From Obrimoposthia wandeli (lineage: Eukaryota), in NCBI GenBank assembly GCA_977020255.1, contig CDROCS010002621.1:62001-126000 (forward strand): a stretch of 64,000 nucleotides of DNA, written 5' to 3'. The notes beneath the pieces are model-generated. The model saw nothing but the letters and a program-made list of their open reading frames with translations. It did no database searches and was not told the DNA's origin. Shown in pieces: positions 20,155-42,146 of the stretch. The position numbers and the translations under genes are program-made. The first letter of the stretch is position 1. The number at the start of each line of letters is the position of its first letter.

Positions 20155-22583
20155 CACCAACAATATATACAAAAAATTAAACTCATAATGACAGACAACC
20201 ATATGTAAAAGTAGAAAACAACAAAACGAATACGACTTAGAATACACAGATTTGATTAACATAATATTCCGTTAACAACAAGCACAGCAATTAAACAACG
20301 ACCTTATTGTATTCCATATGCCTAGAGAGATTAGGGTCAAAGACAAATAAAATGAATATTGGAGAATGGAACTATTAGAAGAATTTTTCAGCATGGACAT
20401 CTCCTGTCGTCTTAATTAAAAGGAAAGATAGTTCGTTAAGATTCTGAGTAGATTATTGAAAACTAAACGAAGTCACACACAAAGACACCTATCCACTTCC
20501 AAGAATCGTTTAAATTCTAATCAAATTAATAACTGCTAAAGTATTCACGACCTTAGATCTACAAAGTGGGTACCGATAAAGAAATAACGGCCTTCTCAAC
20601 AGGATGAGTACTGTACGAATTCAATGTCTTAGTATTTTGATTAACAGGTGTTCCTGTAATATTTCAGAAATATATGAGCCACATTCTAATGGATGCAGAG
20701 CATGTAATGGTATTTGCTGATGACATCCTTATTTTCTCAACAAAAAATTGAAGAACATTTAAAAGATTTAGAAAAGTATTCTTAAGATGGAAAGTAGCAG
20801 GTTTAAAATTAAAACCAAAAAAATTGTGAATGGATAAAAGACAAAGTATATTATTTAGGTCCTGCGTTATCTGCAGAAAAATACAACCAGATCAGAGTAA
20901 TATAGAAAAAGTAAAGAATTTTCCCATTGTTTGGGTTTCTGTGAAACTAGATCCCCTTCCGGAGGCCCCCAACGTAAGTTCTGTAGCAATGGGGATTACA
21001 GATGGACGTGGCCTACATATTCTTACTTTACTGAATTCTTGTCTCAAAATTTGTGTGCAAAGAGTTGTATTTAGGATAACTAAAAAAGGACTCTAAAACT
21101 AATGTGGTGTACTGTAGGGTTATATTATTGAGCCGGTTAGACTGGTCTGAAATCTATTCAAAAAGGGTTCTGGTCAAAACCTAGATAAAATATGTGAAAC
21201 AAAACCGGAGCTAAGCGATGCTAACGATATTCCTTCAATGTATCAGGCCTTAACTATCCTATGTATACACTGGGGTTCGGAACATGTTACATGTTTAGCT
21301 CTCGGCTAGCCTATAGTTTAGTTGGTCTACTTCGTATAAGCATGTAGAAAGTAAACCTTGGTGTTGGTTACAATTATATATTCCAACTAAGATTAGACAA
21401 TAAACTCCTAAATAAAAAGGCGTATACTTAACAGTCTTCAACAGCGACACGTTTCCTAGTTCCCGTTGTTTAGTTCAGTTTCTTTATACAAACTCTTACG
21501 CAATTTATTAATCAAATCAATGTTACACAACATTTAACTCTTTTCAAATAACAAATCAAATCAATGTTACGCAATGTTTCTCACCAATTATCTGTTTTCC
21601 CAATTGGATGGTATGGACTCGTCTCTTATGGGGATTTTGGGTGTTTTTTTTCCAAGGCACTTGCGTTTCCTTCGAACTGTGTCAAACCTTATAATAGATT
21701 TCAGGCGTTTGAATTGTTTCCGTAGCGTAGTTTACTCTCCTTTATCTAGTGACCTGTGTTTATTTTGATTCGCTTCTCCTACGTGACACTCCTCGGTGAT
21801 TTATGTTGTCTTAACTTGAGTCGTATGTCGCTTCGTTGAAATCTATTCTGTTTTCCGATAATGTGAATAATTGCTTATATACTAATCGTTTACGTAGTGA
21901 TGACTGTAGTGATTTCGTCTACCTGACGTTTCACGTGCTTGATTTCCTTACAATCGAGGTCACAAAAAATGCACTATTGGGATTGAGAATTTTGTTTTCT
22001 CTGTTTACTTTTGGGATTAGCTTTCCTCTTTGGTGGCCCTTTTACACATTTTTGAATTTATTTTATACTTGCTTATATGACCTTTAAGATCTCAATTATT
22101 TAACACACATATTTCAATTTCGCTTTTAAAACATTTTTCTATTTTTTAAATTATTTATTTAACCTTCTATTTTAGGTTAGATTTCTACTATAAATAAACG
22201 TGTTTAATTATTATTTGACTAATTTTGTTAATCTAACCCAAAGCCGTAAAAATATACAAGATTTATTAGAAATTTCACACAAATAGTGACACCACTTAAT
22301 AAACTCATTAGTAAAAAAAAAATTTTGAATGGGAAATGGAACAACAAGAATCGTTCAAATACCTAAAACAAAAATTAATTAAAAAAGCTCTTCTCAAATA
22401 TCCAAACTTTAATAATTCATTTTTAGTCATGCTGAGGACAGTGGTTATGCGTTAGGAGCAGTCATAGGACAACAAGACAATATAGAAAAAGATCATGTGA
22501 TAACATACACAAGCAGATGTTTTAAAAACATGAAATAAATTACTCAATAATAGTAAGAGAATGCTTAGCTATGTTTTTTGCTC
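20155..22583 (+). pseudogene. Copy B, 5' remnant: degenerate PR-flank/RT/RNase H of a related Gypsy element
   Basis: Colinear with copy A 29445-29515 and 30232-31340 (e.g. CATGGACATCTCCTGTCGTC, FTTLDLQSGY, GGTTATGCGTTAGGAGCAGT). Many stops and indels; protease region deleted; split by a solo LTR. Confidence 0.85.
20928..22236 (-). mobile_element. Solo LTR related to family C, reverse orientation, inserted in pol of copy B
   Basis: Interrupts the codons for NFPI|PK in copy B pol. The reverse complement of its left end (...ACAGAACTTACGTTGGGGGCCTCCGG...GGATCT...GAAACCCAAACA) resembles the 3' end of the 25912-27971 insert (...ATAGAACTCACGTTGGGGCCCTCCG...GGATCT...GAAACCCCAACA). The right junction and TSD are eroded. 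Confidence 0.65.
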
Positions 22584-23866
22584 AAAGTTTATAATATTAA
22601 AAAATATGTTTTAATTCATTTTTAATAAGATTATACTGTATTTTTTAGAATAAAATTATACTGTATTTTTTTTTAGAATAATTTCTTGGTTGTAATAATT
22701 AAAGTAAAGTAAAAATACTTTGTGGTACAGAGGTTTTGTAAGAAGTTTTCATTATTATTTTTAACTTTGTGGTACATACCGCCAGAGATTTTGCAAGGAG
22801 TTTTTATTGTTTTTAAACCCAACTACATTGTCTCGATCTATTAAAATACAAATTTAGAACAATAAATATACATTTATAAAATAAAAGCAAAAATAATAAA
22901 GATACATAATTCATATTTAAAATTCAATTTTCTATAAAAAATAAAAATTCGAAATTTAGTTGTAAAATATTAGGACTATTTTTGAAATAAAATACAAACA
23001 TATTATTTTATTTGGATTTGGGATTTTCACCAATTTATTTTGATATTTTTACTGATTCGAGTTGGAGGTCAGATACACTGGGATTATCAAATTAACAAAT
23101 TTTCATAGTTTTTGAAGCAATAGTTTTTGATTCAAAATTATCCTGTAATTGATTGAAGATATATTAATAGTTTATCTAAACATAATTTAAAATTAACAAA
23201 TTTTCAATATCAGTTTTTAAAATAAAAATAACGATAGCAGATTTGACTTAAGAATATATATTGATAGGTTAGAAATTTTTTCTATTACTTTGGTTGGAAT
23301 TACAGTTCAAATCACGGTAATCGATTATCATAAGGCCGAGCTGTATTTTGATCACAGAGTAGAGATAATTCCTGACTGTTTTAAAAAAAAAAAAAAAAAT
23401 CAATTTATTTAAATATACATTTTCTTTAATCGTTTTCAATAAAACTAGACAACAATATATAAACACATAAATTAATTTTCGACCCAGTACGCAGGATAAT
23501 AGTGAACAATACACAAAGATTTCAAAATCTAAACGTAGTGCTAATCTTCGCTGGAGACGCATTCAAACTAGGTTAGTAAGAACTAACATAAGTGAAACAC
23601 TACCACAGAGACCTAAATCTCAGATAAATTTTAGAACCAATAACGAATTTTTCCCTGAAACTCCGTTAGTTCACCAACACACGGATCGCTTAATTTCAAC
23701 CGACTCTGAAAACCAAAATCTAACATCAAATTCGGATACAGAAAGTTTATCTTCACCACAAACATCTGACTCGGATAGTTCGTCAGAGATAACAGAAGCA
23801 GTGGCCGTACCAGAACCACCTATTGTACAAATAAACAACGAACAAATAATCAATCAACCTCAAATA

Positions 23867-24968
23867 ATGGCTGAACATAAATTAAATGTTCCATTAGACG
23901 CTTTCAATGACGATAAATCTTCACTACCCGAATTTTTAAATAGATTTGATTCATTTGCCTAGGCATTTGAATGGACTAATGTAGAGAAACTTAGGGTTTT
24001 TCCGGCGTATTTAAAGGGCACTGCCTTAACAATTTATAGAGGATTAAATAATGAACAGAAAGACACATGAGACCATTTAGTTCAGAATTTTAAAATATGA
24101 TTTTAGGAGCACAGTCTGAACAAAATTACCTTAACCAATTTAGGCAACGTGAACAACATTTGGGAGAACCCACAAATATCTTTGCAGTTGAATTACGAAG
24201 ATTAGCCTTAAAATCATTTCCCGGAATTGAGGAAGTCTTAAGAGAACGTTTACTCATACATCAATTTCTATATGGGCTAAACAGTAAAATAAAAAATCAC
24301 CCAGCACTACTAGAAGTAGAAAATTTTCAACAAGCTGTAAATAAGGCTCAACTTGTAGAAACAAGATTAAACATGTTACAACAATCTAAAGTTTCAGCAT
24401 TAACCTTTGAAAAAATACAAAGACCAACAACACCACCAAATTTCAATCAAACTCAAAACTATAACCCAAACACGCAATCTAATTACCAAAACCAACAACA
24501 ATATACACCACCGACAAATAACTTTTATAGAAATCAAACAAACAGAAACTATAAAGACTCACAAATTACACAAAGACAAATTGTGGACTGCAAAATCACA
24601 CAATAGAGAATTGTTATAAAATAACCAACAACAAATTTTGTAGATTTTGTAAAAAAGACAATCATACTATAGAAACTTGCCGAAAATTGTTATACAGACA
24701 AGGTAATAATATAAGACCACAAAATAATAACTTTAATAATCCAAATAATAATTTCAAAAATGCAAATAGTAATTTTAGAAGCCCATATAATAATTTCAAT
24801 AATCAAAATAATCAAGCTAAATATTTTAATACTAATACAAAATTTTGTAAAATTTGTAATATGAAAAATCACAATACTGATGAATGTAGCAAACTAAATA
24901 CTATGATGAACCAATTTGGTAACACAACAATAAAACAACAACAACAACAACAACCACAGATTCAATAA
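23867..24968 (+). pseudogene. gag: gag (capsid plus nucleocapsid with CCHC zinc knuckles), copy A
   Basis: MAEHKLNVPLDAF...FLNRFDSFA*AFEW...LKGTAL...FRQREQHLGE...FAVELRRLALKSFP...LLIHQFLYGL is retrotransposon gag-like. Knuckles CRFCKKDNHTIETC (24639-24680) and CKICNMKNHNTDEC (24846-24887). Stops at 23960 and 24068; frameshifts near 24093 and about 24560. Confidence 0.88.
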
Positions 24969-25346
24969 ACAGTACAATTTAACAATCAAAATCAACAATA
25001 TACCCCAAGAAACCCTATTCGCACTATAGAAAATACAGAAACAACTCCAAACACAGACGAATTAGCATTGTTAAAATTACGACTTAAAGAAAGGGATAAT
25101 CGCTACAGAGAAATACACCAACAATGCCATAACAGTGAACCACAAACAGATAGAACAAACTTACAATCCGAATTTGGAGACATGTTTAGAGATGGTTGTT
25201 TGACATTACAAAAAAATAAATATACAATCACAAAAACAAACCAAACTACTCAAACACAAGAAAAGAAAGTAAAACACAAGAAAAAACGTAAAACACTAAA
25301 AAATCTAAAAACTAAAATTTTTAAAAATACAAATAATCTTAATAAA

Positions 25347-28300
25347 ATGATGAAAAAATTATGGAAAATTATTCAGATAATATTAATAATATGTCTAATT
25401 ATGAACATGATAAAACCAATTAATGCTTTAGAAGCATATGATTGTTCAAAATATAAAATTCAAAATCAATATTCTTTAATGGATTTACAGCAATGTGCAG
25501 ACGCTGACCCAAATGAGGTAAAAATCCAAAATACTAAGTTGTATCAAGTATATCAGGAAACAGATTTCATATATGCAGAAGTTTTCGAATGTAGAGTACA
25601 TGTAGAGACATTTATAACATATTGTGGACAACATAGTCACAATTCAATAGTAAAACCAGCATTAGGAAAAACACCAATAATAGTTGACGCTTTAAATTGT
25701 AAAGATGCTTTCGCAACATGAGAATTGAGAATAGATAGAGAAATTAAAGTCCGAGCAGCGAAAAATAAAATAATTCAACAAATGATATCAGTTCTAAGTA
25801 CGATTAAATCTGATGGAGAATGTACAACAGGAACTTATGTCGTAATGGGAGTTAAGCAAAGTGGTTTAGTAGTTAATAAAAATTTTGAAGTCGAAATAAG
25901 AACTTTCAAAGCGTTAGGATTAGGTTTTGATTAAAATTGAATAAATAATTGTTTTTTATAGTAAAATGAAAATCCTTGAAAGCAAGGTTAAGAATTAAAT
26001 AAATTTTAAAATCAAAATTAAATTATTAAAATTAAAATAAGAATAAATATTAGAAGACCACGAAGGTCGTGTATAATGCGTTGTATATAAAGGTTAAGTT
26101 GACAAAAGCAAAGTGCAAGAAAAAAGAGAATTAATCAACAGAAATTAATTAGCAGAAATTAATTAGCCAACGTCAGAAATCGCCACGTCAGCAAACGTCA
26201 GCAAAAGGTAAGCACATTTTAGTGCGATCAATTAATTTGCCTTGCAGATCCGAAGAAGTCAATCAACGGATCGCCAGGTGGAATTAGACTATATAAGTCT
26301 ACTCAGTTATTAGTTAGACCACGAAAAGCCAAAACAATACACAAGACAACAGATTCCAGTATCAGCAGCGCTTCGCAATCACGGTTAGTATTTATAGTGT
26401 TGGACTGACTAAATTATTGATTTCTAGAATCAGTCGATTAACAATTGTCAAATTCCCACACTTCGCCACGGGTCAGAAAATTACCGGCAATTTCGTTTAA
26501 CCGATCTCAGTCTATATTAACCGATCTCAGTCTATATCAACCAATCTCAGTCTATACCAACCGAGACAGTCTAATCTATAACATCTCGATCTCGGAGAAC
26601 TCTCTGGAATCGGCGAGAATCTAGGAGCCCACGAACCTGAGCGATCTTGGAAAACGGAACGACAGCAGAGATATCGGACACCTCCAGTCTTAGTGTAAGA
26701 CAGATAAATTAAATTGCTAAAAGTTTTATCGCTAAGAAGTTTTGGAAATTGCTAAAATGTTTTATCACTAGAAGTTTTGGAATTATTAAATTGCTAAAAG
26801 TTTTACCACTAAAAGTTTGAAATTGTTGAATTGCTAAAGAGTTTTATTACTGAAAGTTTGAAATTATTAAATTGCTAAAAGTTTTATCATTAGAAGTTTT
26901 GGAATTATTTATCACTAAAAGTTTTATCACTAGAAGTTTGAAATTATTAAATTGCTAAAAGTTTTATCATTAGAAGTTTTGGAATTATTAAATTGATAAA
27001 AGTTTTATCGCTAAGAAGTTTTGGAATTATTAAATTGCTAAAAGTTTTATCACTAAGAATTTTGGAATTATTAAATTGCTAAAAGTTTTATCGCTAAGAA
27101 GTTTTGGAAATTGCTAAAAAGTTTTATCACTAGAAGTTTTGGAATTATTAAATTGCTAAAAGTTTTACCACTAAAAGTTTGAATTATTAGATTGCTAAAA
27201 AGTTTTACCACTAAAAGTTTTGAATTATTGAATCGCTAAAATTGCATTAGAGTATATTATCAGTTTGATTAGTTGTGAAGTTGGATTACACCGATAATTC
27301 GACAAGAAAGTGTATTCCCATTTTAGAGGGGTTACCCTATCTAGAATCAACCCATATTTTTAGAGCAACCAGCTCTATAAATCTATAGCTTTGAACTTAC
27401 CCACGATCTAGAGGAAAGACTCTAAGAATCACCAACCCTAACCTTAAAATCCCATTTGGAATTTAATATTGATCACAGTTTTTAAAGAACATTGAAAGCT
27501 AAATTGGTTCAGTTATATTTCCTATATTTCTAGCAAACAACTGGCCCATCCTTTTAAAGCAACAGCTCTGTAAAACCTATAAACTTAATTTCCGTATTGG
27601 TTGGAGTAAAGACTCTAGCAACCAACTAATCCTATCTAAAAATCGATACGTGGTTCATCCCCACTTGTGTAGAGACTTATAGAAGTCTTAGAAATTTTTA
27701 CTGTAACCTTTTAGAAAATACGTACGTAAACGTATTGTTGTGTTTAATCTAGTGTGTTAAAAATAAACGATTTCCTACATTAGAAAGTATTGTTTTAAAC
27801 CCTTCAGATTAAGAGACATCAAAAGCAAACACCTTCAGATAAGCAATTGAGATAGGCAACCATAACATTAAGTAGGCCACGACCATCGTTAAGTCCTGCT
27901 TCTATAGAACTCACGTTGGGGCCCTCCGCACACAAGAGGATCTATATAAGTCTCATATAGAAACCCCAACAAAAGCAACATTCGACCCTTCCACAAACAG
28001 AATGGTAACAATGCCATTTTGTGAAGCAAACATAGGTCACTGTAACACGGGTTCTTCAATACTTTACTACAAAGTAAAAATGGATCAATGTAAATTAACA
28101 CATTTAAAATCAGAAACTTTTCAAATAATTCAAGGAAAAAGATTTAGAGATGATCCGGAACTAGATCAACAAATTCCAAAGGACATACGCAAAATATATA
28201 GAACTAGAAAAATACGAAAAACACCAACTCCAACTATATTAATGTCTATTGAACAAGGTTCAGGAATGCGATTTATTAAAAAGAAAGAGGAATCCCGATG

Positions 28301-29305
28301 TGGACACTCTGTTTATACAACTAATTATAAAGGAATATATTTATGTAATGAAAAATACATAATGCATAAACGACACCAACTAAATTTGATATTAAAAATT
28401 ATGATTATTTTAACAATAAAATAGATTATTTTTATCACAAAGGACTAATGACAATAGAAGCAATATATAGAGAAACCATAATGAATGATTGTAAATTAAA
28501 TCAAGAAATATTAAAAACAAAATTGGCAATTATTGCTACTAACCCAGAATTAATAACACCATTATTACCATTAGCTGACGGTACTTTTGGAAGAGTAATG
28601 GGAGAAGTGTTATACACTTATCAATGTAAAAAAGTAATAGTTAACATAAGAAATCACCAAAAATGTACAAAAGAATTACCAATTTCTTACAAAAATAATT
28701 CATTATTTGTAGAACCAATCACTAGAATCATACTTTTTAACACATTTAGTATAAAAGAAATAAACTGCTCAAACATAATGGCACCTCATTATCAAATTTC
28801 AAAAGATATTAGGATTTCACTTCCAAGAAGAGATATTGTCGCAGAACCAAAAAAATTACAATTAACCACTCTCAGCAACGACATCAATATACAATCAGAT
28901 AACGAATTAAACACAAAAGGAATTTATATACAGGAAAATATAGATAAGTTAAGAAAAGAAATTTTATTTCCACAAATAAGATCCAGAATTTTAACACAAA
29001 TCATAGAAAGATCAGTACTTGACGGAATTAGCCGTCTCGATTACGACTTATTACTTTCTCCAAATCATTTTATAAAAGCCACTAAAAACACCATGTCAAA
29101 AATATGGGGAAAATTTTTAATTTTTGGACAAGCATTTTCTGGATTAGTTGGAATTTATGCTATATTAATTTGCTTTAAGATTCTTCTAAGTCAAATTTTA
29201 TCAACATATTATATTTATAAAGTTGGAGGATTAACATGGAAATTAATCTTAGGATGTTTCCCATTTTTGGCAAAATTCTTATTTTTAATCATCATCAAAA
29301 CATAG
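25347..29305 (+). pseudogene. env: env-like glycoprotein resembling Chuviridae/Jingchuvirales glycoproteins, split by a solo LTR (25912-27971)
   Basis: Signal-peptide-like MMKKLWKIIQIILIICLIMNMIKPINA, then LEAYDCSKY...SLMDLQQC...EVFECRVHVETFITYCGQHSHNSIV, later NNKIDYFYHKG...MNDCKLNQEILKTKLAIIATNP...YTYQCKKV...ELPISYKN...FVEPITRI, and a C-terminal hydrophobic anchor (29100-29290). This cysteine/motif pattern is the one I recognise from chuvirus-type glycoproteins. Removing the insert restores RTFKATFDPSTNRMV in frame. TGA at 25719, frameshift about 28350-28400. Confidence 0.72.
25912..27971 (+). mobile_element. Solo LTR (family C, about 2.06 kb) inserted in env of copy A
   Basis: Ends CGTTAGG (probably TG mutated to CG) ... 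ACCCCAACA; 4-bp TSD AAAG (25908-25911 and 27972-27975); excision restores the env frame. Internal 20-bp repeats (26499-26570) and about 41-bp repeats (about 26710-27245). No internal coding sequence recognised. Confidence 0.8.
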
Positions 29306-32300
29306 TAAACACATTATCAAATGAAATGCGAGAAACAAATATACAAAAAATTACAAGTACCAAAGAAACAGAAAAAACGGAATCTTCACAATATCCTGAT
29401 TTAGAAAAATATATAGATAAAACAACTATACAAAAACCATCTGCACCAACAATATATACAATAAATCAAAAAGATAACGACAAACGACCATATGTAAAAG
29501 TAGAAATTAACGAATATAAACTTAAAGCTTTAATTGACACAGGATCAAGCGTAACAGTTTTAGACGAATCTTTCTTAAAAACACAACAAAAATTACTTCT
29601 TCTTAAGGAAAATAGTCAAGTCACAGCAGCAAACGGTCAACCCGTAAATATAATAGGAAAATTAGACTGTCTTTTTAAAAAAGGAGATAAATTCATAAAA
29701 ATACCTACAAGAATAATGAAAAATTTTCCTTGCCAAATGATCATAGGAATAGATACATTAAGAAAATTAGGAAATAATTTCCATTTTGATTTTGAAAAAA
29801 ATCAAATAAAATACATTTACAGACCTAACGCCAAAAATGAATACGAGTTAGAAATAAAAGGAGATATCATTCTCCAACCAAGAACAGAAACAATGTTACA
29901 ACTAGAAACTAACATAATCACAGAAAAAGATGTATTATTTGAACCTTATAAATATCAACAAGAAACCTTGAACTACGTTTTGCCAAATATAATTTGTAAA
30001 ATAAAAAACAACACAATACCAATCAGAATCCTAAATGCAAACATTAATGAAATTCATCTCAAGGAAGGAGTACGTCTTGGAAAAATAAGTGTTATTGAAA
30101 ATATTGAATTAATAGATAATGAAAAAATAGAAGATAAATCTAAGATAAATTTTAACGATATCAAATTAAATGATTATGAAAAATCAAAACTTAAAACTTT
30201 AACAGAAAAATATGATGTAATATTTGCTAAAAATGAATACGATTTAGGTCGAACAAATTTGATAAAACATAATCTTCCGTTAACAACAAACACAGCAATA
30301 AAACAACGACCCTACCGAATTCCATATGCCTACAGAGATGAGGCTCAAAGACAAATAAAAGGAATGTTAGAAAATGAAATTGTTAGAAGAAGTTTTTCTG
30401 CATGGACATCACCTGTTGTTTTAGTAAAAAAGAAAGATGGTTCTTTGAGATTTTGCGTAGACTACAGAAAACTAAACGAAGTCACTCACAAAGATACTTA
30501 TCCACTGCCAAGAATTGATGAAATATTAGACAAACTAAAAAATGCAAAAGTATTTACAACTTTAAATTTACAGAGTGGATACTGGCAAATAGAAATTGAG
30601 GAGTCAGATAAATATAAAACAGCTTTCTCAACAGGAGAAGGATTGTATGAATTCAATGTCTTACCATTTGGATTAACCGGAGCTCCAGCAACATTTCAGA
30701 GATGTATGAGCCATATTTTAATGGATGCAGATCACGTAATGGTATATATCGACGACATTCTTATTTTTTCAAAAAATTTTGAAGAACATTTATAAGATTT
30801 AGAAAACGTATTCTTAAGATTACAGGTGGCAGGATTAAAACTAAAACCAAAGAAATGTGAATGGATAAAAGATACAGTAAATTACTTAGGACATGCTGTA
30901 TCAGCAAAAGGAATACAACCAGACGAGAGTAATGTAGAAAAGATTAAAAATTTTCCGATCCCAAAAACAGTAAAAAATATACAGGAATTTTTAGGGCTTG
31001 CAGGATATAATCGAAGATTTATTAGAAATTTCGCACAAATAGCGATACCATTAAATAAACTTATTAAAAAAGATGAAAAATTTGAATGGGAAAAAGAACA
31101 ACAAGAATCTTATGAATATTTAAAACAAAAACTAATCGAAAAACCTATACTTAGATATCCTAATTTTAATAATTCATTTTTAGTTATGACTGACGCCAGT
31201 GGTTATGCGTTAGGAGCAGTTTTAGGACAACAGGAAAATAACGAAAAAGATCATGTGATAGCATATGCGAGCAGAGGTCTTAAAAAACATGAAAAGAATT
31301 ACTCAACGATAGAAAGAGAATGCCTAGCTATTTGCTTTGCAATGGAACATTTTAAACATTACTTATTAGGTCGAAAGGTTTATGTTTACACAGATCAAAG
31401 ACCATTACAATGGCTTTTAAATCATAAGGATACAACATCTAGATTAATGAGATGGGCATTGATTTTACAAAAATATGATATTGAAATAAAATATAGAAAA
31501 GGAAAATCTAACGCTAATGCAGATTGTCTATCACGAATAAGAGAAGAAATAAACGAAATAACTGCAAACGACATCGAATTAAATCTTTTTACAATAATTC
31601 AAGCTAAATATGATGAAAAAGTAATTACTAAACTTCAAAGCAAAGATAATGAAATTCAGCAAATAACTAAATACATTAGCACAAACGAAGTACCAACAGA
31701 TGAAAAATTAAGAAAACATTTAAAAACTCACGAATCACGATACAAATATAGTAATGAAATATTATATTATTTAAATGACAAAAATCTATATTCACTAGTT
31801 ATTCCTAAAGAAATTCAGTGTCAATTACTTCTTCAATATCATAATGGAGCCCTAGGAGGACATTTATCATCAAAAAAGACATATTCACGATTAAATTTAA
31901 AATACTATTGGATTGACATGAAAGAAGATGTAAAAAATTGGTGTAAAACATGTGAAATATGTCTTAAACGGAAAAATACTTTACGTACCACAAAAATTCC
32001 TTTAAAACCAATACCTTATCCATCAGCCCCCATGGAAACTGTTGCCATGGATGTAATGGGACCATTACCTGAAACACCCCGAGGAAATCGATATATAATA
32101 GTATTTTCTGATTATTTTACAAGATGGCCAGAGGCTTTTCCAACACATGATCAAAAGGCTGAAACCATCGCGAAGGTTTTAGTCGAAAAAATTATTTTTA
32201 CTTTCGGTGCACCCCGAAAATTATTAACCGACAAAGGTCCTGAATTTATAAATAATGTATTAGCGTCAATAGCTGAAATTTTTCACATAAAAAGATCAAT

Positions 32301-32858
32301 ACAACTCCATATCACCCTCAAACTGACGGGTTAGTAGAAAGATTTAATAGAACCCTCGAAGATATGATGGCATCATACACAAACAACAACCAAACAGATT
32401 GGGATTTACACATACCTCCATGCCTTTTTGCATATAGAACATCAGTACATGCATCCACAGGAGAAACACCTTTTTATCTTATGTTCCTCAGAGATCCTCA
32501 AATGCCTATTGACCTAACATTACTACAACCAACTACACAATACTTAGAAATACCTGAATATAAAATAGAAATTAGAGAAAGAATAAAACTAGCATTCGAA
32601 AAAGCTAAACTATTTGTAAAAAACATACAAGAAAATTACAAAGAATATTATGATAGAAGAACTAAGCCATTAAATATAAAAAGTGGAAGTAAAGTGATGA
32701 TTCACAATCCACAAATTAATGTAGGATTATCACACAAATTATCAAAACCATACAAAGGACCATATACAGTCATTAGTACCAACGGAACCAACATAACAGC
32801 TAAACTAGATAATGAACCAAAATCAAAAGAAATAAGAGCACATATAAACAGATGTTGA
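29236..32858 (+). pseudogene. pol: pol: aspartic protease, reverse transcriptase, RNase H, integrase (copy A)
   Basis: Protease ALIDTGSSVT. RT: SAWTSPVVLVKKKDGSLRFCVDYRKLN, YPLPRID, FNVLPFGLTGAPATFQ, YIDD. RNase H: TDASGYALGAVL, YSTIERECLAI. Integrase: zinc-binding H..GGH...CKTCEIC, MDVMGP, TDKGPEF, GLVERFNRTL (after a frameshift about 32290), KGPY. In-frame TAA at 30793. Confidence 0.97.
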
Positions 32859-32936
32859 GAAATACCTGAGGAGAATACAAAAGTAAAAAGTCACAAATAT
32901 AACTTAAGATCAACTAATGATAATACAATTCTACAA

Positions 32937-34253
32937 ATGTTGACAATAAAAAACTCACAAAAACAAAATAAAACTATTTTGAGTCATCAAACCATAAATA
33001 CAATAAAAATGTCAATAAAAGAAATTGGTAAAATAATGATGTTATTGATAATATATTTTACAATAAAATATAACCTACTGAAAGTAAACGCAGCAAACAT
33101 AAATGACAATCAATCAATCATACAACAACAAACAAATAAATACGACTCAACAACTCATCTCATAAAAAATTTTTGCTTAATAACAATAATACCTGAAATC
33201 ACATCAATAAAGTTAAAAATTTCTCTTCATACAAACAAAACAGGAAATGTGCAAATCACACAAACAGATAGAAAACAAAATATAATTATTTCAGGAATAA
33301 AATCACAAAAATATACAATACCATTTTTAAGAACAGAAACACAATATAAAATAAGAATTAAGTCGAAATTAAAAAATATAACAATCTATGAAAGAATTAT
33401 AGAAACTCACATATACCTAGCATCAATATTAAAAACAACAGCAAAATATATATCAAAACATAAAATAATGATAAAATGGGAATTTCAACTAAAAATAGAT
33501 GACTTAGATAAAGCCCTCATTAGAATTAGATATAGAGGACATAATGCTAATTTTTGGAAAGACTCAGAAAAACAATTAGAAAATACACAAACTAAAACAA
33601 ATTTAACCATAGAAAATATAAGATATCCGGAGAAAATAATAATGGATAATAGAGAATGCGTAATCACTAATAAACCAATAATGTACAGACAATGGAGTCA
33701 AAAGTTTGAAAGTTATAAAAATCTAACAAAATTAACAATTTTAGGAAATAAGATATCCAAACTATATCAACCTACAATTTTTTGTGGTCGTTGGTCAGCA
33801 GTAAAAATTAAGAAATATGTTAAAGAAACAACCAAAAAACAAATGCTACATACCACAGCATTAACATCAAAGATTTACAGAATTACAAATCAAGTTGAAA
33901 TTACGGAGAAAATAAGAATTAAATTAAAATTAAAAACAACAAAAACAATATCCTATAAATCATTTAATAAAAGTTTAAAAATACACTATGGTAAACAAGA
34001 ACATTCAAGGAATGAAGATAAAAAAGAACTTATAATAATAGTTATAGTAATCGAAATAATTACATTTATAAATCAAATATCATGGAGAATTTTAATTTTG
34101 AAACATACAAAAATGATAGAAACAAAACAACGAAAACACTTTTGTGGCCCCCCAGGCCCTTTTACTATTTATATTATTCCCAAGGATGAGAATTCTTCAG
34201 AATTATCCATAAATACTGTAATAGAAAATAAGAAAAGAAATATAACACAATAA
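32937..34253 (+). CDS. Element-encoded putative type I membrane protein with FN3-like beta-sandwich domains (438 aa)
   Basis: Uninterrupted ORF. Hydrophobic signal-like segment IGKIMMLLIIYFTIKYNLLKVNA; FN3-like motifs YTIPFLRTETQYKIRIKS and IMIKWEF...IRIRYRG...FWK; several N-x-S/T sequons; C-terminal hydrophobic stretch LIIIVIVIEIITFINQISW. The FN3 call is motif-level inference only. Confidence 0.55.
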   Translation: MLTIKNSQKQNKTILSHQTINTIKMSIKEIGKIMMLLIIYFTIKYNLLKVNAANINDNQSIIQQQTNKYDSTTHLIKNFCLITIIPEITSIKLKISLHTNKTGNVQITQTDRKQNIIISGIKSQKYTIPFLRTETQYKIRIKSKLKNITIYERIIETHIYLASILKTTAKYISKHKIMIKWEFQLKIDDLDKALIRIRYRGHNANFWKDSEKQLENTQTKTNLTIENIRYPEKIIMDNRECVITNKPIMYRQWSQKFESYKNLTKLTILGNKISKLYQPTIFCGRWSAVKIKKYVKETTKKQMLHTTALTSKIYRITNQVEITEKIRIKLKLKTTKTISYKSFNKSLKIHYGKQEHSRNEDKKELIIIVIVIEIITFINQISWRILILKHTKMIETKQRKHFCGPPGPFTIYIIPKDENSSELSINTVIENKKRNITQ

Positions 34254-34449: not shown

Positions 34450-34845
34450 ATGAACAGATTGGCAAAAGTTTGTAAAAAATGCAAAAAATTAGAGAAAAAG
34501 ATTCGAGATGTTTCCAGACAGCATGACGACTACTATATAAAGATCACAACTCAAAATGAATCACTGAAACAGTTAATAAAACAAAGTGTGGAAGAAAAAT
34601 TGAATAATGATTTAACAATTGACGAACTAGAAGGGAGATTGACACATAGTTTTGGCAGAATAGACTATTTAATACAACAAACTTTAAGTCAACGATCAAC
34701 TATAGCCTCATTAAGAAGACAAATGATGACCTATAGCGACATGATAAACTTTTATATGACCATTAATCCTACTATCCCAACTAATACAACACTTGATGAT
34801 GGATATGACTCGGATATGAACATTGGTGAACAAAACTCTGGTTAA
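34450..34845 (+). CDS. Element-encoded small coiled-coil protein (131 aa), function unknown
   Basis: Intact ATG-to-TAA ORF with heptad-like helical composition and N-terminal CKKC. A degenerate homologous sequence lies in copy B at about 38750-38900. Confidence 0.6.
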   Translation: MNRLAKVCKKCKKLEKKIRDVSRQHDDYYIKITTQNESLKQLIKQSVEEKLNNDLTIDELEGRLTHSFGRIDYLIQQTLSQRSTIASLRRQMMTYSDMINFYMTINPTIPTNTTLDDGYDSDMNIGEQNSG

Positions 34846-35013: not shown

Positions 35014-36225
35014 ATGGATAACAATCACCTGGATACGACTCCAGACCAGCTCACTCGGTCAGATCAAACAAAAAGCACAGCAAAAATAGAAAGAGGAAAA
35101 TAGGAAAATATGCCAGAAAGGTGGTATTTAGCAAAATTCCTTTATCAAAAGATGCGTCAGTTTAGCATTGCATACTTTAGAAACAACGGAGGAAGAAAAA
35201 TGTTTTCAAATCAAACATTTCTTCCTAATAAGTTAAAAATTACCACAGAGGAAAGAACAAGCGCACTTATTTTTTCCAATGAGAAAAGACCAACCCATAT
35301 GGCTCTCAGCGAAATATTCCCCGATAATAATTGTGAAAAAATATATATTCACGTGGCACTAGGAGTGGCCCATTTAAAAACCAAATCAGATAAGACCTTA
35401 AACTTTCTGATGATAGGAAATCATACCTACACCTTACAAGCAGCACAATTAGAAAATAAATATAGCATAAAAATAGGAAGAGGACCAAATCTATTATTTA
35501 TAGAAAAAATAAGAAAAGCAGAAGTACCTCAACAAATAGCCCTTTTTGAATTAAAAAACGCACAGAAACCAGCAATTTTGTTCCTCGATTGCGAAATGGT
35601 GATATCAGTGGATAAACAGCCAGTTTTAGCAAGTGTTTCTATTATAAATTACATAGGCAACGTAATTATAGATACACTGTGCATAACTAGAGACAGAGTA
35701 AGAAATTACGTTACTAGAATAACTGGACTGTCAGATAGAAAGTTACAAGGATGTAGAGATGCTGATGAAGTAATTGAGGAAGTAAAAAACATTGTGAATG
35801 GTAACATCATCGTAGGTGTGGGACTAACAAACGATTTAAAAGCTTTACGCCTACAGAAATGGATGTTATTCAACATTGTTGATTTAGGAATATCTAAAAG
35901 CATAAAATCAGAACTAAATCACAATCACCCAAATATTGGACTCGCCAACATGGTACGGAAATACTTAAATGTAGAAACACAAAAAGGAGTCCACACTAGC
36001 ATGGAAGATGCAAATCACACCCGAAAAATTTTCATAATGAAGGAGGAAATGTTGAATAGAGAGTTTGATTTGACCGAGGTGATGAATCCACCATCTAGCG
36101 AGAACAACCCCAGTTCATCGTTCTCACAAATCCGGAGTCCGGTACACAAAACTCCCCGATTTTGTTGGATTAAGGTAGTACTATTATTATTTTTATTCTG
36201 TTTTCATTCTTGTCTAAATTTTTAA
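35014..36225 (+). CDS. Element-encoded REX4/ISG20-like DEDDh 3'-5' exonuclease with an unknown N-terminal domain
   Basis: ExoI LFLDCEMV (D 35587, E 35593), VLASVSIINYIGNVIIDT, NYVTRITGL, ExoII IVGVGLTNDLKAL (D 35833), ExoIII QKGVHTSMEDA (H 35992, D 36007). The ORF track starts at 35110; the upstream in-frame ATG at 35014 is separated by one TAG (35101), and copy B is open across the equivalent segment. Confidence 0.85.
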
Positions 36226-36570
36226 CGATATTTAAACAGACATGATTGTGATTAGTAAAACATTGATCAGTTATAACATACAAACAACACTAGTTAACCA
36301 TAGAAACAAGACAAAATAGTTTTACTAATAATTAAGATAAAAATTATAATTCTGAGGACAGAGACTTTTATGACCCGGAGGATTGTTGGGAAAATATTAT
36401 AGCTATTTATTTTGAAAAAATAAAAATATAAATATATATATAAAAAATCTTAAAAATAAAAAGTAAATAAGAATTAATTAACTAAAGAATTAATTAAGAA
36501 CTTTCCTTAATTAGGGAAAAGTTCTATTTAGAAAATATGCACTTTGGCATTTTAGTCTCAAGAGTGATCA

Positions 36571-36622
36571 ATCTCCGACGGGAAAAAAGCCCGTTTCGCC
36601 CTACCGGGCTCATCAGGGAGAT
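36571..36622 (-). ncRNA. Type I hammerhead ribozyme
   Basis: Minus strand reads AUCUCC-CUGAUGA-GCCC-GGUA-GGGC-GAA-ACGGG-CUUUUUU-CCCGU-C-GGAGAU: complete catalytic core, three perfectly paired stems and a GUC cleavage triplet (cut between 36577 and 36576). Confidence 0.92.
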
Positions 36623-37309
36623 GGCTTGTTATCTCTAACTTCGCGGTGGATTCCGCGAAGCCAGAGATAACAATAATAAAATGCCAGGGAAAAGAGGGAA
36701 AGATTCCCCCTTTCATGTGCCGATGAATATCGTCGACATGTGATGTTGGTGTGCGCAAGTGCACAATTCAACACACACACACACTCACTCAACTTTCACT
36801 CACTCACACTCACAACTCACTCAACTTTCATACTCACTCTCCTTACTCACTCACTCACATTATGTTTGGTGTGTATGTGTGTATAAAACTTTCCCATCTG
36901 CCCAGATACGATGTTTATGGATGGAATTTTCGGATCGGCGTCGGTGTGTTTGGGCTGCACACCGAGTTCCCTCTCTGCCCAGATCCGCTGCCATCGGTGT
37001 ATGTGTGCAGCAGTATTTCTTCTTGCAGTTTCTGATTTGTCTGATCGTTTACCAGTGGAATTGAGGTTGTAGTGCAACTGATTGACTTGTTTTCTATAGT
37101 TTGAAGTGGAGCTTTGATTTTTTAAGATTCACATTCGAACAAGATAGTCTAATTGGATTAACAAACAGAAAAAGCTCTGGAAATTGCAACATCACTGTCA
37201 GCAGTTTGTTTGAATATTTAAGCTGCACACTGCTTACTAAAAGGCCAGTGGAAAAAATTTTATTACTAAATTCTTAAAAATTTGGAATCGAATCTATCGA
37301 ATAAATATA

Positions 37310-37805
37310 TTATAACAATTTGAACAATTTTATTTGCAGCTATAACAATTTGAACAATTTGACCATTTCCGGATATTGATTTGATTTAGGAACAGGACTA
37401 TATTGTTATTCTAAAATATAACAATTTGAACTATTTGATTTGCAGCTATAACAATTTGAACAATTTGACCATTTCCGGATATTGATTTGATTTAGGAACA
37501 GGACTATATTGTTATTCTAAAATATAACAATTTGAACAATTTGATTTGCAGCTATAACAATTTGAACAATTTGACCATTTCCGGATATTGATTTGATTTA
37601 GGAACAGGACTATATTGTTATTCTAAAATATAACAATTTGACTTTCAGCTATAACAATTATAACAATTTGACTTTCAGCTATAACAATTTGAACAATTTG
37701 ATTTGCAGCTATAACAATTTGAACAATTTAATTTGCAGCTATAACAATTTGAACAATGTGATTTGCAACTATAACAATTTGAACAATTTGACCATTTCCG
37801 GATAT
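37310..37805. repeat. Nested tandem repeats (106-bp x3 and about 30-bp units) in the copy A LTR
   Basis: GACCATTTCC recurs at 37361, 37467 and 37573; ATAACAATTTGAACAATTTGATTTGCAGCT units follow. Confidence 0.9.
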
Positions 37806-37871
37806 TGATAAGATTGGGAAAATAAAAAGAATTGATAATCAGAAATTACTTGTTTTTTCATTTAATTAACA

Positions 37872-40650
37872 CATATATGGCATAAGTATTAACAACAGAA
37901 AAACAAAAAACAAAAAATAACATAATGATCAAGTGGAAAATTCAACAAAAAATAGACGACTTAGACAAAGCCATTATTAGAATTATATAAAAGACTTAAT
38001 TCTAATTTTTAGAAAGATACAAAAAAACAATTAGAAAAATTTCAAGCCAAACAAATTTGATCATAAAAAATTTAAGATATTCAGCAAAAAAATCATACAG
38101 AATAGGGAATATGTGATCACTAACAACCCAATAATGTAAAGACAATGAGGAAACAAATTTGAAATTTGTAAAATAATTAACAAAATTAACAATTCTAGGA
38201 ATAAAGATAAATATAACAATTCACGATTTTTTGCGGTAACTGGCTATTAATTGAAGTTAGTGAATACATTAAAGAAACTGCCACAAAACATATACAACAT
38301 ACAATAAGACACACAACTAAAATATATCAAAATACAATTCAATTTAATATCCCAGAATTCAAAATTTTTAAAACAAAATAAACAATATTTTAAAAGTTTT
38401 AATTAAAACGTTGGGGTGTTTTATAGTAAACAAAACTACTCTTACGATGAAGATGGAACAGAACTCATAATAACAATAATAATAATTGAAATATTAATAC
38501 TCGTCATAAAAACATCGTGGAAAATCAGAATTTCAAAACACAAGAAAATTTCAAAACAAACTCCTCGAATTAATTTTATGGGCTCCTAAGACCATTTATA
38601 ACATATATTATACCAAACTCTACAAACTCATCCAATGTATCAATAAACACGTTAATTGAAAACAATAAACAAACACGACAAAAAACCTTTACTAATTCTA
38701 GGTATTTTTATATTAGTAAATGTATCATCATTTTTTTAATAAATTTAAAATATCATTGGGAAAACTCCACGCCTGCAATCAAAGTCATAAACTAAAAAGA
38801 AAAATTCAACACGTAAAACATCAGCAAGATGATTATATTAAAAATATAAACAAAATGACAAACTGAAATAGAATATCAAAGATTGGTGGACGAAAATATT
38901 AATCAAAATATAGAAATCAATAAACATGAAAAGGAAATTAAATCTAATTCCTATACAAGTAAATAAGATAATTTTTATCGTCGAATTGATGCCTAACAAA
39001 CAATATTATTATCTCTACATGCGCAAACCCGACTATTGATAAACATATTTATTTTTCCAAACATGAAATGAAATTTATTTTTCGAAACGATTCGGGAAAT
39101 GTGTCTGAAAATTAGTCTTTGTAACCAAATTAACGTTTTTCATTTGTTATTAAAACCAGCTATCTCATAAAGCGCAAATATTTTTTTATTTCTGACAATG
39201 ATAAATATTCATTGTAATAAACCCCCTAATAACCCCCCACAAACTAACCATTCTTTCATAACTTTTCTTATTACCAAATACATTTTTTTATGAAAATTTA
39301 CATATTTTTTGAAACACCAACAGATGGATATAACCTCCAATCACTTGGATATGACTCCAGACCAAAAAGGGAATACTCGGTCAAATAAAAAACTAAACTC
39401 AAAAACAATTGCAAGAGTGACGCTAGGGTGCATGCCAGAAAAATCAGTTTTAGCAAGATTTCCTTACCAAAAAATGCGCCAGTTTTGTATCGAATTTTTT
39501 AAAGAAACGGTAGAGGCAGAAAATTGTTTGCCATCAAACGCCCATTCACAATAAGCCAAAAATCACCACAGAAGAAAGTATGAGTGCATTGATTTTTGCC
39601 AACGAAGATAGTGATTGTGAAAGTGATTGAAAAAGTGATTGTGAAAAAATATTTATTCACCTGCACGAGGAGTAGCTCATAGAACATATAATACGCTAAT
39701 TTTTTTATGATATGGAATCACACATTCACTTTACTAGCAGCATAGTTAGAAAATTTGTACTACATAAAAATAGCAAAAGATCTAAAGCAATTATTCATCG
39801 ACAAAATAAGGACATCGGAAATACCACAACAGATAACCCTAATGGAATTGAGAGAAAGTCAGAGGTCGGCAATACTGTTCATTGATTCTGAAATGGTTAT
39901 AACAGTGAACAAACAACCTGTATTGACAATTGGGTCTATTATAAATTACACAAGCGAAGTAATGGTAGATACACTATGCATTACCAGGAAAAGGGTAAGA
40001 AACTATGTGATGAGAATAACAGCCTTACGATTAAAAATGTGGATTTTGTTCAACATTGTTGATTTGAAAATATCAACGACCCCAAAAATGAGTTAAATCA
40101 TAGCCACCCAAACATTGTACTTGCAAACATGATACGCCAATACCTAAACATAGAAACTCAAGCAGGAGTTAACACTGCCATGGAAGATGCAACTCATATC
40201 AGATAAAATTTCGGATTAAGGAAAACAATGTCGAGAGAAGAGTTTAATTTGACCGAGGTACTAAACCCTATAATAGACAATACGAACAGACAAAGTTCCT
40301 CGGTTGAGACAGTGACCAAAGGCCTCGAATGCGGCACACAGAAATTTCCAATTGTCCTGATTTAAGGTATTTTACTCTTCTCGTTCTTTCTTGATAAACA
40401 GTTTTATTTCTGAAAAACATTACCTACCCAAACATATAGCAATAACAAACCTTTTTATTTACTCAATAACCTATAGATGCAATACTTTAAATTTTATCTA
40501 AAATAACCAACTATTGACTTTTAACATTAATGCATTTTTCGTTTGCACTAGGTACAGTTAGTCGTAACATTGATGATCAAATCGAATAATTTAAATTTTA
40601 GTACAAAAACGTTGTATTTCTGAAGATAACATTTTTTCTAACCCCGGTAT
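37872..40650 (+). pseudogene. Copy B, 3' remnant: degenerate FN3-like ORF, coiled-coil ORF and DEDDh exonuclease
   Basis: Colinear with copy A 33408-36383, e.g. AAATAGACGACTTAGACAAAGCC vs AAATAGATGACTTAGATAAAGCC; MPEKSVLARFPYQKMRQF vs MPERWYLAKFLYQKMRQF; FIDSEMV; TAMEDA. Confidence 0.85.
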
Positions 40651-41300: not shown

Positions 41301-42146
41301 GAAGTTTTTCTGCAAGAAATCCCTCGCATATTTACAACAAATAAATAATCAGACACAAATTTCTCAATCTTGATCTTTTAATTTTTTAGTAGAACAACAG
41401 TTTTGGTTTTGTAACAATTTCAGTTTGGAATTTTCGATAATTATAATGTTGGTATTTGACAAAAAAATCTGATTTAGTCGCAAGGCATTGATTATTACTT
41501 TTGTAATTTATATTACAATATAAACTAATTTTGACTTTTAAGTTTATAAAATATTGCTCAGCACAAATAGCTAAACCAAAATTTCCCATATTTTCCGTTT
41601 ATCCAATCAATTTTTATTTATTTACGACTTTTATTTATTATTGAATAAAAATCGGAAAACTTTCATGATTTTACATTATGTTAACATTAAAAAAATTTAC
41701 AGATACTTTAATTGTTCAATGCATTTTACATTATTAACATTTAAAGAACATTATCTATACATTATTTAATTTTTTATAAATTATAAAAACTTTAGAAATC
41801 AATTTAACAAACTTACTATTTCTCAAATTATGACATGAAAACAATAAAAGCAATATAGTTAATTATTAATAAAATACGATATTTCTTTGTAATTTTATGT
41901 GCGAGCGAACATTTTACACTTTTACATCTGCTCATATTGTTTTAATATCATAAGGTGTAAATAACCATCAATTCAAATTTTCAAATATAATTTTTATAAA
42001 AATTTTATTTAATCTTTTGAAAGATAGTCATTACATATTTTCAATAAATTAACTTTCTTTACATTTTTTTCTTAATTAAACTAATAATTTCTGTAAATTT
42101 TTTCTATTGAATTACATTCTTTTATTTTTTAGTTTTAGGGAATGAA

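Follow-up and report, generated by a model that had tools for sequence, protein, structure and literature searches.

The window analysed here, a stretch of 64,000 nucleotides from Obrimoposthia wandeli (assembly GCA_977020255.1, contig CDROCS010002621.1, positions 62,001 to 126,000 of the forward strand), contains a decayed, 5'-truncated Ty3/gypsy long terminal repeat (LTR) retrotransposon with a class III glycoprotein (Env) of the chuvirus/herpes-gB type between gag and protease. The window copy is a dead member of a young, high-copy family. Its parts, including open reading frames (ORFs) beyond integrase, are as follows, in window positions.

22582-23866, + strand: 5' leader of the element; 22582-23467 shows 93.9% identity to a sibling leader, from ~300 nt past the primer site of the sibling
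23867-24965, + strand: gag, with capsid region and CCHC knuckles (three in intact siblings); two stops, two frameshifts
24966-24968, + strand: TAA, copy-specific damage; 18 of 20 loci are unbroken here
24969-25346, + strand: polar/basic linker from nucleocapsid to Env signal; pN/pS 0.56
25347-25427, + strand: predicted internal signal sequence of Env (M25347-A25427); basic n-region, hydrophobic core with KD19 ~2.0
25428-25911, + strand: Env ectodomain, N-terminal part; PF24664 match (E 2.8e-18), stop at 25719, 95.7% identity to sibling Env
25912-27971, + strand: nested solo LTR of a second family, 2,060 bp; 4-bp direct repeats at 25908-25911 and 27972-27975
27976-29143, + strand: Env ectodomain, C-terminal part, and membrane-proximal region; PF24664 match (E 4.7e-56), Borna G match (E 0.012), frameshift near 28356
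29144-29285, + strand: Env transmembrane (TM) anchor (~29144-29200) and a weaker second hydrophobic segment (~29231-29285); frameshift near 29279
29479-29781, + strand: aspartic protease (Pfam), catalytic Asp at 29536
30265-31479, + strand: reverse transcriptase and RNase H (Pfam); stop at 30793
31795-32855, + strand: integrase (Pfam); frameshift near 32289, stop 32856 at its end
32859-34253, + strand: ORF X; signal-like segment (~33010-33085), beta-rich ectodomain, TM anchor (~34023-34085), short tail
34450-34845, + strand: ORF Y, a small separate ORF, probably coiled-coil; weak coiled-coil-type Pfam matches only, 89-98% identity in siblings
35110-36225, + strand: separate DEDDh 3'-5' exonuclease ORF (ISG20/REX4-like); RNase_T match (E 8.7e-08), before the 3' LTR in siblings too
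36372-37870, + strand: plus-strand primer tract and 3' LTR (LTR from 36384; right end provisional); tract and TG start as in sibling 3' LTRs

Direct reading of the window confirmed what a preliminary description of this DNA had proposed, namely that the gag frame continues through the TAA at 24966 into a linker, a signal at 25347-25427 and the ectodomain: one frame spans both intact CCHC knuckles (24639-24680 and 24846-24887), the TAA, the linker, the signal-like segment and the AYDC...YCGQHSHNSIV stretch. A TM anchor with the protease beginning about 80 codons later had also been described, and the catalytic Asp of the protease indeed lies ~84 codons past the second hydrophobic stretch. The gag-env-protease arrangement stood as described, but the element extends beyond the part then outlined, through ORF X, two further ORFs and the 3' LTR. 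Compared with a natural sibling frame, the window copy has stops at 23960, 24068, 24966, 25719, 30793 and 32856 and frameshifts near 24092, 24577, 28356, 29279 and 32289, with an additional in-register stop at 28367, directly past the frameshift near 28356. Because of these lesions, Env and protease are not in one frame in the window copy. Judged by sequence, the solo LTR, the six stops and the five frameshifts are best taken as later damage to this copy. Its 5' LTR and primer-binding site are missing, and the primer-site motif was not found on the + strand of the window.

In a natural sibling copy, a single frame of 2,889 codons holds gag, env, protease (PR), reverse transcriptase (RT), RNase H (RH), integrase (IN) and ORF X, with knuckles at amino acids 373, 395 and 447 and hydrophobic segments at 617, 1188, 1217, 2476-2481 and 2816. 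When loci of the genome (1.35 Gb) were aligned to this natural frame, the interval from the knuckles through linker and signal into env was unbroken in 18 of 20, the two broken loci being the window copy and another in which 1 nt is inserted where the window has its TAA. The interval from the Env anchor to the protease was unbroken in 15 of 30 loci, carried private, scattered breaks in 13 and was partly covered in two, with no site affected in more than two loci. Programmed readthrough at 24966 was therefore rejected on the unbroken gag-env intervals, and a programmed frameshift before the protease on the scattered and private breaks. All 47 full-length PF24664 matches scored in the genome lay within frames of 747-5,301 codons. 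In a public protein set, Env was fused to protease in each of the five long relatives (P0001-P0005; 40-43% identity), three of which have upstream knuckles and two of which have RT through integrase. Among 29 siblings chosen by protease sequence alone, these being the closest copies, outside which rarer env-less derivatives could lie, env of at least 1.2 kb lay directly upstream in 25 and gag lay within 1.5 kb in none. The single gag-env-pol chain of the preliminary description was thus borne out by the sibling frame, the gag-env intervals and the five relatives, and siblings do have the open gag-env frame for which it had proposed to check younger copies. Intact copies showed env neither as an ORF apart nor as an insert flanked by a target-site duplication belonging to it.

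The sibling Env matched PF24664 (Monjiviricetes_fusion) over the whole domain (E 4.4e-92). In the window copy, both halves of Env matched this profile, so the resemblance to the chuvirus-like fusion glycoprotein that had been suggested is not due to chance. A model of the natural-copy Env, built from a 12-sequence alignment, reached a pLDDT of 68.6 and a pTM of 0.41, with a good N-terminal half. Foldseek searches with this model placed herpesvirus gB on top in PDB (herpes simplex virus (HSV) gB, E 7.8e-13) and chu-like virus glycoproteins on top in BFVD (E 5.6e-36, 17-24% identity). An independent structural aligner returned HSV gB (Z 10.4, 357 residues, rmsd 7.8), followed by other gBs, rabies G and thogotovirus GP. 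A sequence search of PDB with Env gave nothing useful, and the matches there came from the fold search only. By this model, Env is a class III fusogen with a gB/G-type fold and a long central helix; the similarity to viral fusogens is clear both by profile and by fold. The Env ectodomain is cysteine-rich, and its cysteines and the gB fold are retained in relatives at ~40% identity. No furin site of the form R-x-[KR]-R was found in the Env ectodomain.

Env is under purifying selection and is constrained to a degree like that of RT. In comparisons that share one reference and are not independent, pN/pS was 0.11 in the Env ectodomain (11 comparisons), 0.09 in RT (10) and 0.56 in the linker (11); the ORF X ectodomain gave 0.87 in nine comparisons, all of them shallow. 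Between the two subfamilies of the element, pS in Env was 0.46-0.50 and pN 0.034-0.038.

The family is a young, recently copied member of Ty3/gypsy (Metaviridae). It has the pol order PR-RT-RH-IN, a gag capsid with CCHC knuckles, LTRs, primer sites and a short target-site duplication, the LTR and primer features being those of siblings. Retrotrans_gag matched the sibling frame just below its cut-off of 24.1 bits (23.9 bits, E 4.9e-05). With the gag-env junction as query, 40 loci were scored, of which 38 matched over the full length with 88-100% identity. The post-integrase region gave at least 127 scored matches at 93% identity or more, 93 without a stop; only top candidates were scored, so these counts are lower bounds biased to good copies. 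Siblings were 13.8-14.5 kb long where both ends were visible. Their LTRs have TG...CA ends and were 95.7-100% identical within all seven pairs examined, and a 4-bp target-site duplication was present in all three copies whose two ends were resolved. Part of the sibling frameshifts may stem from assembly errors, as several occur even in a copy whose LTRs show no difference over 1,450 nt. A tRNA primer site was seen in six of seven siblings and fits the 3' end of the host tRNA-Arg(TCT) over 13-14 nt; a second tRNA-like end fits it nearly as well, over 12-13 nt. As a separate observation, a tandem array with a period of ~207 bp (G000:C5734:143175-151119) carries tRNA-like 3' ends complementary to the element primer site over 12 nt, and ARAGORN called no tRNA at four dispersed sites of the same tRNA-like type.

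The family is also mosaic. The gag of the window copy has 93-96% identity with one subfamily against 75-87% with the other (window 23471-34253 compared with loci L021-L039). The env-to-RNase H region follows the second subfamily (pS 0.02-0.05 versus 0.39-0.55), and the linker and ORF X are near-identical across both. This pattern suggests template switching between co-packaged subfamilies.

The insert at 25912-27971 is a solo LTR of a second, Burro-like family of ~23 kb, which also has env in the polyprotein. The preliminary description had delimited 25912-27975 as an insert plus one copy of its target-site duplication, which agrees with the direct repeats found. The same LTR occurs in same-strand pairs ~21 kb apart on several contigs, and T precedes the matching LTR end in all 11 other loci, giving TG...CA ends. 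The interior of one LTR pair contains a knuckle, env, PR, BIR, RING, RH, IN, a dual-specificity phosphatase and an RT motif, and its Env is 92% identical to the second-family Env. The 21 Envs extracted from 30 fetched loci form this one second family, 42% identical to the Env of the window family. At loci L084 and L085, BIR and RING lie between two protease domains, and a downstream frame of 1,263 codons carries the dual-specificity phosphatase and several signal/anchor segments.

A layout of shell, fusion and enzyme proteins is already published for flatworm and roundworm elements, and the window family is a further member, not Burro proper. An in-frame env between gag and pol, with matches to mononegavirus glycoproteins, was reported in 2019 as the first such case for the planarian Burro polyproteins (Arkhipova and Yushenova, PMC6431247). 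Burro/GYPSM1 elements exceed 30 kb, with an ORF of 4,873-5,140 amino acids and BIR, Bcl-2, MATH and ankyrin cargo (PMC6431247). The window family shares the position of env, in frame between gag and pol, but differs in its size of 13.8-14.5 kb, its chain of ~2,800 amino acids and a 2,889-codon frame in which Pfam found no BIR, Bcl-2, MATH or ankyrin; the donor of the solo LTR is the more Burro-like of the two families. Elements with gB-type GAG-ENV-POL order have been described in Nematoda, Bryozoa and Platyhelminthes, six of them from Schmidtea (Smed_errantivirus_1-6; Chary and Hayashi, 2026, PMC13524379). These HSV/gB-type errantiviruses have in common with the window family a Ty3/gypsy pol, a gB-type env, the gag-env-pol order and a multi-copy state (PMC13524379). 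The window family likewise has intact, multi-copy, recently inserted members, although the window copy itself is not intact. Supplement rows for domains I-II of the Smed errantivirus Envs (flatworm clade, C1a cysteine type; PMC13524379) show, by eye only, the same motif run as the window Env. The main text of PMC13524379 never mentions polyprotein, fused, single ORF or exonuclease, and no discussion of how a single chain is processed, of ORF X or of the exonuclease was seen there. The window element belongs to a different genome and a different family from the Smed errantiviruses. Element content alone would fit a planarian-type flatworm as the probable host.

Nematode endogenous retroviruses (NERV) reportedly have a continuous ORF. 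In PMC13524379, NERV is cited as a metavirus with Env before pol, captured from an RNA virus (Sacco et al. 2022, J Gen Virol), and it is nematode-restricted, unlike the window family. BEL/Pao elements carrying chuvirus G are also cited there (Dezordi et al., as cited in PMC13524379); in the window family, Pfam identified the gypsy-type RT_RNaseH and Integrase_H2C2 and no BEL-type domain. The G proteins of chuviruses and other Monjiviricetes have in common with the window Env the PF24664 domain and the fold; the free G P0010, like the window Env, also begins with a signal and ends in two hydrophobic segments. However, the window Env is 17-24% identical to viral G and 10-13% to gB, and it is an internal part of a polyprotein.

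Hydrophobicity and small residues at -1/-3 suggest that Gag is cytosolic, Env luminal, Pol cytosolic and ORF X luminal. The core of the sibling Env signal has a KD15 of 2.86, and the 30 residues before it include 12 K/R and no D/E. In the second family and P0001-P0005, too, the [AE]YDC start follows a similar hydrophobic core, and small residues at -1/-3 precede the conserved ectodomain start in all relatives compared. Segment 1, the Env anchor, has a KD19 of 1.97-2.42 in all eight measurable proteins; two of the ten proteins lack the anchor motif and were not measured. Segment 2 has a KD19 of 1.01-1.69, below 1.6 in seven of the eight measured proteins, and contains 3-5 polar residues, which makes it more likely an amphipathic cytosolic helix.

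We consider it probable that the window copy is the dead form of an element that makes Gag, Env, Pol and ORF X as one chain, threads it into the endoplasmic reticulum (ER) and packages Pol by way of the Env tail. The genomic RNA would encode a chain of ~2,800 amino acids (Gag-linker-signal-Env-TM-PR-RT-RH-IN-signal-ORF X-TM), which would enter the ER at two internal signals and be cut twice by signal peptidase, so that Env and ORF X would each have a free N-terminus on the luminal side. The cleaved signal would keep Gag at the membrane on the cytosolic side. Pol, likewise cytosolic, would loop from the Env anchor to the second signal, and the element protease would release the enzymes from this loop. 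Since signal-peptidase cleavage would separate Gag from Pol, packaging of Pol should depend on Env and on membrane budding. Pol would reach the particle on the tail of Env during budding, and the element could not replicate without Env, which would agree with the constraint on Env.

The preliminary description had compared the layout with that of flaviviruses, whose chain, C-prM-E-NS, alternates cytosolic and luminal domains and is cut by signal peptidase and the viral protease. There is no homology, as flaviviruses have a class II E and an RNA-dependent RNA polymerase and the window element has a class III fusogen with RT and integrase; the likeness would be one of topology and possibly of the way of working, not of kinship. 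In foamy viruses, Pol is packaged without a Gag-Pol fusion and is made from spliced RNA, and release is Env-dependent (PMC7828637). They differ from the window element in their separate spliced RNAs and class I Env, and the proposed likeness is that Pol is not packaged as Gag-Pol. If Pol rides on Env, the packaging route would be unlike both the Gag-Pol fusion and the foamy virus route. In literature searches and keyword scans of the text of PMC13524379, we came across no description of processing by signal peptidase, of Pol tethered to Env or of a membrane module after integrase in such elements, although Sacco 2022, Grohme 2018 and figures or other supplements may cover them. The family is well suited to testing Env use by env-bearing invertebrate gypsy elements and the packaging of Pol when Env lies between Gag and Pol. 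Its members are young, numerous and compact and lack the Burro cargo, Env shows RT-like constraint, and no env-less gag-pol occurred among the 29 closest copies.

Several points weigh against this one-chain, Env-dependent reading. Segment 2 of the element's own family is the exception, with a KD19 of 1.69; if it truly crossed the membrane again, Pol would end up in the lumen. With a pLDDT below 50 over most of residues 425-549, the moderate Env model does not decide the topology. Both signals start at or directly after a Met, which would allow Env and ORF X to be made from spliced RNA or by internal starts, and one frame would yield equimolar Gag and Pol unless some unseen adjustment is made. 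Four of the 29 protease-anchored copies have a truncated env upstream, and the pN/pS values include neutral decay after insertion.

It seems unlikely to us that, despite the continuous frame, splicing or initiation at the Met residues of the signals supplies most of the functional Env (or Env-Pol) and ORF X, with Gag-Pol coming from a splice that skips env and packaging being conventional. The Met doublet at 25347, the Met before the ORF X signal and the signal region of the second family, which is also Met-rich, speak for it, as does the spliced Pol RNA of foamy viruses (PMC7828637). However, 18 of 20 loci lack a stop that would end gag, and translation of unspliced RNA must therefore yield the fusion. 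P0001 and P0003 also have no Met in the ~30 residues before the signal core. Contigs from four runs of one sample covered all 30 bins and showed joints at low depth only, a pattern without bearing on splicing. Env might also be a hitch-hiking relic in an element that moves within cells, retained since frame breaks in it would cut off Pol. As the frame is single, a change that truncates env costs the element Pol as well, and this would be enough to hold the frame open; the family is very successful within the genome, with at least 127 scored copies. Yet an open frame leaves unexplained the amino-acid constraint seen between subfamilies and the cysteines and gB fold kept in relatives, and we regard the relic explanation as quite improbable.

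A two-pass C-terminal anchor of Env, as in flavivirus E, would take the Pol of this chain into the lumen, with active Pol made by another route. In its favour, all measured relatives and the free viral-type G P0010 retain the second hydrophobic segment, and gB-type Envs flanked by two TM domains, at unspecified ends, are mentioned in PMC13524379. This topology is nevertheless hardly credible given the low hydrophobicity of segment 2 in seven of eight proteins and its polar residues, which include Lys and Pro; moreover, RT and integrase must act in the cytosol and nucleus, as textbooks hold. Practically no credence is due to the idea that, in the window copy alone, an endogenous chuvirus gene landed by itself between gag and pol ORFs that were separate, although chu-like glycoproteins are the best structural neighbours and stops and frameshifts separate the parts in the window. 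At least 38 full-length matches to the junction have this env at the same position, it is fused in distant relatives, its identity to viral G is low, and the sole internal target-site duplication belongs to the solo LTR. A stand-alone insertion is refuted by the shared position of env across siblings and by the unbroken sibling frames.

A more far-reaching form of the one-chain reading is speculative, and we hold it doubtful. The element would be an obligately enveloped retroelement with a two-glycoprotein surface from one chain, with Pol packaged only on the tail of the fusogen and Env clustering also joining protease monomers. The fast-evolving, FN3-like ORF X would serve as an attachment or receptor-mimic partner, as with the partner glycoproteins of herpes gB, and every transposition, in the germline included, would pass through a membrane-budded particle.

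ORF X was in frame with integrase in four of ten ten-kb loci and was broken, truncated or ended before the motif in the others. P0003 and P0004 also have a signal-like segment and an anchor after integrase, in a hydrophobic layout similar to that of ORF X. BLASTP, shuffle tests and profile comparison gave no significant match between ORF X and the post-integrase parts of P0003 and P0004 (z ≤ 2.5, hhalign probability 0.4%), so the likeness is positional only. ORF X had no match at E ≤ 0.001 among 1.84 billion representatives, and Pfam fn3 did not match it. In the Atlas, ORF X and the P0004 part gave FN3 and cytokine-receptor clusters, FN3 at 0.88-0.92 with low recognition. What we take to be an FN3-like T-x-Y-x-I strand pattern is visible in ORF X and in the P0003 and P0004 parts. 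A single-sequence AlphaFold model of ORF X had a pLDDT of 31. On this weak evidence, ORF X is possibly FN3-like, and it may be an overlooked second surface protein common to this group of elements.

Multi-copy frames with Pfam fn3 were rejected as element cargo, as none of the six stretches matched env, gag, ORF X or exonuclease. These stretches (loci L122-L127), one of which has an RT/RH remnant, look like exons of duplicated host genes. They adjoin long Ser/His/Thr/Gln simple repeats and apparently belong to an expanded host gene family. Concerning the relatives themselves, P0004, a gag-env-pol polyprotein, is deposited as a hypothetical protein of a Flavobacteriaceae metagenome-assembled genome and is most likely animal DNA in the bin. 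The P0002, P0003 and P0005 chains carry extra cargo, with Bcl-2-like and ankyrin domains and two or three protease-like domains.

The exonuclease matched ISG20 (1wlj, E 1.5e-09) and has the D-x-E and H-x4-D motifs; a word search found no database relative. Rotifer LTR elements carry a DEDDy exonuclease as ORF3 (PMC5408684). A DnaQ-fold exonuclease is thus an extra 3' ORF in both; that of the window family is DEDDh, ISG20/REX4-like, and additional to env rather than replacing it.

Remnants of an older related copy lie on both sides of the element, at 20155-22582 (RT and RNase H) and 37850-40300 (ORF X, exonuclease and LTR), with an LTR-like start near 40650. The young copy looks nested in this older one, apparently with loss of the older integrase. 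Further downstream, 42111-59537 on the + strand contains exons of a host reprolysin metalloprotease gene, which we take to be ADAM10-like. An 18-bp tandem array of ~650 bp at 54409-55056 probably lies in an intron of this gene.

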